From Escherichia coli (GTDB lineage: Bacteria > Pseudomonadota > Gammaproteobacteria > Enterobacterales > Enterobacteriaceae), in assembly GCF_003334255.1 (NCBI RefSeq), contig NZ_QOWU01000074.1: a stretch of 18,419 bases of DNA; one strand, given 5' to 3'. A program made the position numbers and the translations under genes. Shown here piece after piece: positions 880-2,945 of the stretch. Numbering within the stretch: the first letter of the stretch is position 1; every line of letters starts with the position of its first letter. The notes below the pieces were generated by a model that saw only the letters and a list, made by a program, of their open reading frames with translations, did not search any database and was not told the DNA's origin.

Positions 880-2193
880 ATGGATAAAGTCAAATATCCA
901 ACAGGCGTCGAAAACCACGGCGGCACATTACGCATCTGGTTTAATTTTAAAGGTAAACGTGTCAGGGAAAATCTTGGTGTCCCTGACACTGCCAAGAACA
1001 GGAAGATCGCCGGGGAACTGCGGACATCAGTATGTTTTGCCATCCGCACAGGAAGCTTTGATTATGCTGCACAGTTCCCTGACTCCCCCAACCTTCAGGC
1101 TTTTGGGGTAAGTAAAAAAGAAATTACGGTGAAGGAACTTGAAGAAAAGTGGCTGGATCTGAAACGAATGGAAATCTCTGCAAATGCATTCAATCGCTAT
1201 GAATCCGTTGCAAGAACGATGGTTTCGAAAATTGGAGGCAGTAGACTGGTGTCATCGGTAACCAAAGAGGAATTGCTGTATATCAGGAAAGATTTGCTAA
1301 CCGGGTATCAGAATTCAACGAAAAACAAAGCAGCAGCAAAAGGACGGAGCGTCGTTACTGTAAATTATTACATGACGACAATCGCTGGAATGTTTCAGTT
1401 TGCTGCAGATCACGGTTACTTAGAAGCAAATCCCTTCCAGGGAATTAAGCCTCTTAAAAGAGCCAGGGCAGAGCCAGATCCGCTAACTCGTGACGAATTT
1501 ATTCGCCTGATAGATGCTTGCCGACATCAGCAGACGAAAAACCTGTGGTCATTGGCTGTGTACACAGGAATGCGTCACGGTGAACTGGTCTCCCTGGCCT
1601 GGGAAGATATCGATCTGAAGGCAGGAACAATTACCATCAGGCGCAATTATACGAAACTTGGTGAGTTCACTCTACCGAAAACTGAAGCAAGCACAAACAG
1701 GGTTGTGCACCTTATCCAGCCCGCTATCAGTGTCCTGAAAAATCAGGCTGAAATGACAAGACTGGGTAAGCAGTACAACATCAAGGTGCAACTACGTGAA
1801 TATGGACGTTCAGTGAACCATGAATGTACTTTCGTGTTTAACCCTCAAGTGGTTAGAAAAAGCGAACAGGTAGGTTTTGTCTACAAAGTCGATTCTGTAG
1901 GTGACTCATGGGAAACAGCCATTAAGCGTGCAGGGATCAGGCATCGAAAGGCATACCAGTCACGACACACTTATGCGTGCTGGTCATTATCTGCCGGAGC
2001 AAACCCAAGCTTCATTGCCAGCCAGATGGGCCATGCAAGTGCCCAGATGGTATTCAATGTATACGGAGCATGGATGACTGACAGCAATGCAGAACAGATC
2101 GCAATGCTGAATCAGAAGCTGACAGATTATGTCCCAATGATGCCCCATAGTCACCAAAGTGACACCAGAGGCTTATTAAAATCAGTAAGTTAA
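880..2193 (+). CDS. int: Phage integrase, tyrosine site-specific recombinase
   Basis: 437 aa; C-terminal catalytic region with …HRKAYQSRHTYACW…GHASAQMVFNVYGAWM… matching the conserved R/H-x-x-R and Tyr box of lambda-family integrases; directly abuts the junction with yecE. Confidence 0.9.
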   Translation: MDKVKYPTGVENHGGTLRIWFNFKGKRVRENLGVPDTAKNRKIAGELRTSVCFAIRTGSFDYAAQFPDSPNLQAFGVSKKEITVKELEEKWLDLKRMEISANAFNRYESVARTMVSKIGGSRLVSSVTKEELLYIRKDLLTGYQNSTKNKAAAKGRSVVTVNYYMTTIAGMFQFAADHGYLEANPFQGIKPLKRARAEPDPLTRDEFIRLIDACRHQQTKNLWSLAVYTGMRHGELVSLAWEDIDLKAGTITIRRNYTKLGEFTLPKTEASTNRVVHLIQPAISVLKNQAEMTRLGKQYNIKVQLREYGRSVNHECTFVFNPQVVRKSEQVGFVYKVDSVGDSWETAIKRAGIRHRKAYQSRHTYACWSLSAGANPSFIASQMGHASAQMVFNVYGAWMTDSNAEQIAMLNQKLTDYVPMMPHSHQSDTRGLLKSVS

Positions 2194-2219
2194 TCCTTAA
2201 TACCCGTCATGTTAACTGC

Positions 2220-2945
2220 GTGGAGGGCAACACCACGCTTTACGCCCTGCCGAAACCCGAGGTTGTCCTGCGCTGGCGTGAACAGACCACAGATGACTTC
2301 CGCTTCTGTTTTAAGTTTCCGGCGACCATTTCGCATCAGGCAGCATTACGACATTGCGATGATTTAGTGACTGAATTTTTGACCCGCATGTCACCGTTGG
2401 CTCCGCGCATTGGGCAATACTGGCTGCAACTGCCTGCCACATTCGGCCCACGGGAGCTGCCTGCGCTTTGGCATTTTCTCGATTCTCTCCCTGGCGAATT
2501 TAATTATGGTGTGGAAGTCCGCCATCCACAGTTTTTCGCCAAAGGGGAAGAGGAACAAACGCTTAATCGCGGTTTACATCAGCGCGGCGTTAATCGGGTG
2601 ATTTTAGACAGCCGCCCGGTTCATGCAGCACGTCCACACAGTGAAGCTATTCGCGACGCTCAACGAAAAAAACCTAAAGTTCCGGTACATGCTGTACTGA
2701 CGGCGACAAGTCCGCTGATCCGTTTTATCGGTAGTGATGATATGACGCAAAACCGGGAATTATTTCAGGTCTGGTTACAGAAATTAGCGCAGTGGCATCA
2801 GACCACTACGCCTTATCTTTTTTTACATACGCCAGACATTGCCCAGGCACCGGAACTGGTACATACCCTGTGGGAAGACTTACGTAAAACGCTTCCAGAG
2901 ATCGGAGCAGTTCCGGCTATTCCACAGCAATCTTCTCTTTTCTGA
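2220..2945 (+). pseudogene. yecE: yecE (DUF72 family), 5'-truncated remnant at the prophage junction
   Basis: The 241-aa frame matches YecE from …CVEGNTTLYALPKPEVVLRWREQTTDDFRF… to the C-terminus (…AIPQQSSLF). Native YecE is about 272 aa as I recall. The frame is closed by TGA at 2160-2162 with no ATG or Shine-Dalgarno in between; the only in-frame start is GTG at 2220. Confidence 0.7.

Follow-up and report, generated by a model that had tools for sequence, protein, structure and literature searches.

The yecE frame behind the integrase gene lacks its native 5′ end

In an 18,419-nt stretch of Escherichia coli DNA (contig NZ_QOWU01000074.1; here called the window), yecE stands directly behind a phage integrase gene, raising the question of whether this copy still has its own beginning and, if it does not, what has taken its place and what is left of the gene. 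The first-pass annotation of the locus had proposed that the native 5′ end was replaced by phage-derived sequence and that the gene was probably inactivated. Codon-by-codon translation confirmed its description of the reading frame: an in-frame TGA at 2160-2162 (plus strand) closes the yecE frame upstream, the frame is open only from 2163, where it reads HQRLIKISKLILNTRHVNCVEGNTT..., and no in-frame ATG, GTG, or TTG occurs between 2163 and 2219. The absence of an ATG had thus been correctly noted. The first of these three codons is the GTG at 2220, from which an ORF of 241 aa runs to 2945.

Alignment against the intact YecE protein of K-12 MG1655 (272 aa), which the annotation had suggested as a check, showed that the window product is collinear with residues 32 to 272 only. 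Over this length, 240 of 241 residues are identical (the sole change is N195S), and the DNA carries 7 changes in 726 nt. BLASTP against K-12 YecE gave collinear identity only from about residue 28, and the NCBIfam YecE equivalog model NF007637 matched the 241-aa product at profile positions 32 to 272 of 272, the first 31 positions being absent. The feature at 2220-2945 (plus strand), designated yecE′, therefore comprises YecE codons 32 to 272 (DUF72), as judged from the ORF, BLASTP, and NF007637, and, although its ORF is intact, is without the native start, promoter context, and N terminus. At the DNA level, unbroken identity to K-12 starts at 2212; of the 40 nt to the left, 16 match, and these are scattered. 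The residues ahead of CVEGN are TRHVNCV in the window and ARHFNCV in K-12, so the annotation had been right to call them native-like. We concluded that the 5′ end is genuinely missing and that chance does not explain the observation.

To the right of the junction, the window is collinear with K-12 from 2212 to 18344 (98.5% identity) through yecE′, yecN, cmoA, cmoB, torZ, torY, cutC, yecM, argS, yecT, flhEAB, and cheZYB. At the far end of the window, K-12 cheB homology (cheB is on the minus strand) ends at 18344, and the last 75 nt (18345-18419) match a multicopy element present in 2,144 of 5,426 genomes (median, 3 copies, on chromosomes and plasmids); the coding sequence beside this element in another genome is labeled “IS4-like element IS421 family transposase.” From these matches, an IS421/IS186-like element running off the window appears to interrupt cheB at a point ~159 nt short of the 3′ end of the gene; chemotaxis adaptation would then probably be affected.

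The switch point is the attachment core of a phiP27-like prophage

Two phage genes adjoin the junction, both of them intact ORFs on the plus strand. The first (588-824; 78 aa) encodes an excisionase, its counterparts being labeled “excisionase family protein” in strain G1/2, “excisionase” in Escherichia phage PhiR49_2, and “putative excisionase” in the Stx2e phage phiP27. The second, int (880-2193), encodes a tyrosine integrase of 437 aa (a tyrosine-type recombinase/integrase in the G1/2 annotation), which in a profile search against Xer and integron integrase models gave partial matches, all of them under the equivalog cutoffs. The xis-int segment (162-2224) is 99.7% identical at the nucleotide level to PhiR49_2, which comes from ECOR13, and 349-2222 is 94.2% identical to phiP27, PhiR49_2 being the closer of the two to the window's phage. 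The DNA between the TGA and the yecE homology (2163-2211, plus strand; HQRLIKISKLILNTRHV) is phage P-arm DNA lying in the yecE frame. It overlaps the 3′ end of int, holds the sequence AGAGG (2167-2171) and an ATT at 2175, and is part of the phage records of both PhiR49_2 and phiP27. K-12 identity begins at 2212, and the phage matches run from the left up to 2222-2224, which confirms that phage-derived sequence has replaced the native 5′ end; window positions 2212 to 2945 are E. coli yecE, from codon 29/32 through the stop, and prophage DNA lies to their left.

The annotation had also suggested that an att core might overlap this spot, and this proved to be so. Both termini of the phiP27 record (AJ298298) are annotated as att (attL/attR) and consist of the 11-bp sequence TTAACTGCGTG, identical to window positions 2212 to 2222, which begin 18 nt after the TAA stop of int and whose final three bases are the GTG at 2220, that is, the native Val32 codon. 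When the window, the phiP27 end, the phi297 junction, K-12 attB, and the far junction of G1/2 were aligned, TTAACTGCGTG was the sole stretch common to all five, apart from a short upstream ATCA run also lying within the shorter phiP27 segment. The unoccupied K-12 site has a single copy of the core, and G1/2 has two, one at either end of its prophage; one copy in attB with two in the lysogen is the classic signature of site-specific integration. We are highly confident that window positions 2160 to 2945 represent the int-proximal junction (attR, in the orientation of yecE) of a phiP27-like lambdoid prophage and that this copy of yecE is functionally inactivated.

On this reading, the sequence of events was as follows. 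Site-specific recombination by the tyrosine integrase at TTAACTGCGTG (the strandless, 11-bp attR crossover region at 2212-2222) inserted the prophage into yecE and broke the gene between codons 29 and 32, leaving codons 1 to 32 beside yecD at the other prophage end and bringing codons 32 to 272 immediately after int. What remains downstream is thereby cut off from the ATG coupled to yecD and from any host promoter upstream of it, and it no longer encodes barrel strand β1 or five invariant N-terminal residues. At the other prophage end of the source genome, one would expect yecD, yecE codons 1 to 32, TTAACTGCGTG, and ATACGGGATTTTTAAAAATCAC..., in this order. This copy of yecE is inactive as long as the prophage remains in place, and precise excision would restore it.

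The phage arm offers only poor signals for expression of yecE′

In K-12, yecD and yecE share bases at their boundary, where ATGA combines the start codon of yecE with the stop codon of yecD. Judging by the spacing in G1/2, the yecD coupling and any yecD promoter are now ~56 kb from yecE′. No sigma-70 consensus promoter was found on the plus strand between 1066 and 3500; the underlying scan of positions 1 to 3500 returned 3 hits against 4.5 expected and is uninformative beyond the lack of an obvious promoter. Transcription of yecE′ would need read-through from int, which could supply it. As for translation, the annotation had stated that there was no Shine-Dalgarno sequence and that the GTG at 2220 was the only candidate start. 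The first statement was correct for that GTG, at which the best anti-Shine-Dalgarno duplex (+1.2 kcal/mol) is less favorable than those of most other window positions, but it did not hold farther upstream, where AGAGG (-5.8 kcal/mol) lies 3 nt ahead of the in-frame ATT. The second was correct among ATG, GTG, and TTG codons, but the RefSeq annotation begins at the ATT. Either AGAGG-ATT (2167-2177) or the GTG could permit some translation, and we would expect no meaningful amount from them.

These signals are the basis of an alternative in which yecE′ is not silent at all, such that a chimeric YecE of 256 aa, initiated at the ATT with the help of AGAGG and possibly of coupling to int, is made and works with 15 phage residues in place of the native N terminus. 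RefSeq annotates exactly such a product in G1/2 as a normal coding sequence, the nonpseudogene “DUF72 domain-containing protein” WP_052119704.1, whose ATT-initiated frame (window positions 2175 to 2945, equivalent to 3276-4046 of L002) overlaps the int stop codon. The phage arm does leave the frame open and keeps RH-NCV, and comparable chimeras of 256 and 259 aa from other yecE junctions have been deposited (as cluster members), as has the 241-aa GTG-initiated form, on 77 contigs. Against this, translation in E. coli initiates very poorly at ATT, and the Shine-Dalgarno spacing of 3 nt is short. The leader MKISKLILNTRHV furnishes no β1, and none of G5, W9, W14, L22, and Y25, residues shown below to be invariant in the family, is encoded anywhere in 2163-2219. 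Moreover, the 16 of 40 nt that match K-12 to the left of the core are about what would be expected of an att flank and not of a conserved coding replacement, and the open frame extends for 19 codons only, within int and the P arm, and is constrained by both. We consider a working chimera very unlikely.

The displaced 5′ end is found at the far junction in strain G1/2

The other end of the prophage was read in G1/2 (NZ_CP060083), a close relative among the lysogens that need not be the genome from which the window comes. G1/2 is 100% identical to the window over positions 1900 to 3000 and identical from 658 to at least 6000; all 151 mismatches fall within 1-657, most of them below ~330, so that the window comes from a related lysogen and not from the same one. 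The phage region at 1-657 is mosaic, with similarity to PhiR49_2 beginning at 162.

At the far junction of G1/2, yecD is followed by yecE codons 1 to 32 (MIYIGLPQWSHPKWVRLGITSLEEYARHFNCV), the core TTAACTGCGTG at the switch point, and the phage arm (IRDF-stop), the two core copies of this genome being ~56 kb apart. The NCBI pipeline calls the 96-nt yecE 5′ piece an incomplete pseudogene. The nonphage cargo beside this junction (L005 827-6891) includes separate coding sequences for a YadA C-terminal domain protein, an S6-family peptidase, and an autotransporter beta-barrel, and many structural genes of the prophage are annotated as frameshifted, possibly through assembly errors.

The far junction bears directly on a further alternative, according to which an old, cryptic island deleted the 5′ end of yecE and no intact gene could be recovered. 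Such a remnant or rearrangement would suit the frameshifted G1/2 genes, and the window does not reach the other prophage end of its own genome. In G1/2, however, the displaced 5′ end and the second core are both present and arranged as expected for an integrated prophage; the junction in the window matches the phiP27 att end base for base; a complete phage genome has been deposited for the near-identical PhiR49_2; and int and xis are intact ORFs. A remnant or rearrangement is therefore extremely unlikely. The same arrangement supplies the structural precondition for active lysogeny, because precise excision would rebuild yecE. We assign a very small probability to the idea that the prophage serves as a reversible yecE switch through excision regulated by particular conditions, or that an ATT-initiated chimera is made with altered activity; none of our findings favors either idea.

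The lost N terminus contains a barrel strand and five invariant residues

The preferred reading, that of a prophage-split and inactivated gene, depends on how much the missing residues matter to YecE. A homologue search of 1.84 billion representative proteins (E value of ≤0.001) gave 4,301 matches; among the best 150 of these 4,301, most full-length proteins align from query residues 1 to 4. In an alignment of 48 diverse DUF72 sequences (34 to 62% identity to YecE), 13 columns are invariant, and 5 of the 13 (G5, W9, W14, L22, and Y25) lie within the lost segment. The AlphaFold2 model of YecE (mean pLDDT, 94.9; pTM, 0.92) is an eight-strand α/β barrel that best matches 1ztv, 1vpy, and 1vpq, all crystal structures of DUF72 proteins; it places β1 at residues 3 to 6 (pLDDT above 90), short helices at 12 to 17 and 22 to 25, and β2 at 31 to 34.

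One further alternative, in which nothing is missing because native YecE begins around the GTG at 2220 and is annotated with too long an N terminus in K-12, could appeal to the fact that PF01904 (DUF72) matches K-12 YecE at residues 21 to 249 only, leaving the extreme N terminus outside the domain model, but it is vanishingly improbable, given that NF007637 spans profile positions 1 to 272, that most distant homologues and PDB 1vpy (EF0366) align from residues 1 to 4 and from residue 1, respectively, that the five invariant columns and the confidently modeled β1 precede the GTG, and that the ATGA overlap with yecD is typical of translational coupling; a native start at this GTG was rejected accordingly.

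Because the loss of residues 1 to 31 removes one barrel strand together with an invariant Trp/Gly cluster, the model and the alignment make it very likely that YecE function is lost, in agreement with the first-pass annotation. The function of YecE is described as unknown (PMC8065619, PMC9751135). As the protein has no known activity or assay, “inactive” is here a statement about structure and conservation.

Repeats on the phage arms are candidate integrase-binding sites

We reconstructed attP from the two phage arms. In the reconstructed sequence, an inverted repeat, CCCGT (window positions 2203 to 2207, plus strand) ... ACGGG, surrounds the core; the left position of the repeat reads CCCGC in K-12 attB and CCCGT in G1/2 attL. 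The two halves are plausible candidates for core-type Int sites. The P arm contains two copies of the motif ATG(T/C)CCCA, at 2129-2137 (ATGTCCCAA) and 2140-2148 (ATGCCCCAT), both on the plus strand and inside the 3′ end of int, and the P′ arm contains five, all of which lie on one strand within 59 bp (L005 7593-7651, minus strand, at the far junction of G1/2). Similar TG(C/T)CCCA repeats are found on the opposite arm of phiP27. Over the whole window, TGYCCCA is present at chance level (7 copies against 5.4 expected), and it is only the local clustering at the arms that stands out. Judged by this clustering, the ATG(T/C)CCCA repeats are likely candidates for arm-type Int sites.

About one in ten E. 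coli genomes has a split yecE, and databases list the fragment as a normal gene

Among 5,426 complete E. coli genomes, the attB region is uninterrupted in 4,903 and split in ~10%, and 491 genomes carry the int-yecE junction as it is in the window. With yecE split in about one of every 10 complete genomes, the gene must be dispensable in nature. yecE is listed as one of the standard insertion sites of Stx phages (PMC8065619, PMC9751135, PMC8112680, PMC8705337), and for phiP27 itself PMC9751135 cites Recktenwald and Schmidt 2002. A phiP27-type prophage at the known yecE attachment site is thus an already described situation, and nothing about it is new.

The main value of the observation is therefore as an annotation caveat and not as new biology. 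The gene is best treated as a prophage-split pseudogene fragment, and yet databases list it as a normal DUF72 protein of 256 aa (ATT start) or 241 aa (GTG start). The yecE site is also a useful marker of phiP27-type and phi297-type prophages, which are often Stx converting.

Comparison with known systems

Phages that rebuild the gene into which they integrate, such as e14 or phage 21 in icd and the integrators into tRNA genes, resemble the present case in that the core-side arm keeps some similarity to the host (RH-NCV). They differ from it in that no functional replacement is made here, the arm having no canonical start and no homology to YecE residues 1 to 26. Rebuilding of yecE by the phage arm was considered as a candidate explanation in its own right and rejected: the arm contributes 19 in-frame codons after the TGA, with no ATG, GTG, or TTG among them, and the match to the host is limited to the 16 of 40 nt already described.

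In lambda-type integration, core-type sites flank the core, arm-type sites lie on the P and P′ arms, and Xis serves excision. The arrangement as a whole resembles this type, with adjacent xis and int genes, a short identical core, an inverted repeat around the core, and clustered arm repeats. It departs from that type in that integration disrupts a protein-coding gene, within which the target is situated, and in that part of int, whose stop is 18 nt from the core, forms part of the P arm; the Int sites are, in our case, putative.

The same position in yecE is used by phi297 and the O145:H28 Stx phages (AJ431361, LC5678xx), which include Stx1a, Stx2a, and Stx2d phages (PMC8112680), and their core includes TTAACTGCGTG. 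Their integrase belongs to another lineage (a 1,287-nt gene with ~73% nucleotide identity), and their annotated core or duplication is longer, at 19 to 21 bp (1751-1769 in L007 and 1751-1771 in L008) (PMC8112680). In the GenBank record of phi297, yecE already carries the label “partial due to integration of bacteriophage 297.” A 262-aa library protein, P0001, in which an unrelated N terminus of 75 residues is fused to YecE from about residue 33 (…SHGSGNTTLYALPK…), suggests, from its sequence, another element or an assembly junction near the same point of yecE.

phiP27 (AJ298298/NC_003356) differs in size, at 42.6 kb compared with ~56 kb for the related prophage of G1/2, and its cargo is not that of G1/2, where genes for an S6 peptidase autotransporter and a YadA-like protein stand next to the far junction. 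It nevertheless shares with the window's prophage its location in yecE, the same 11-bp att sequence, the same int-proximal record end, and similar repeats on the opposite arm.
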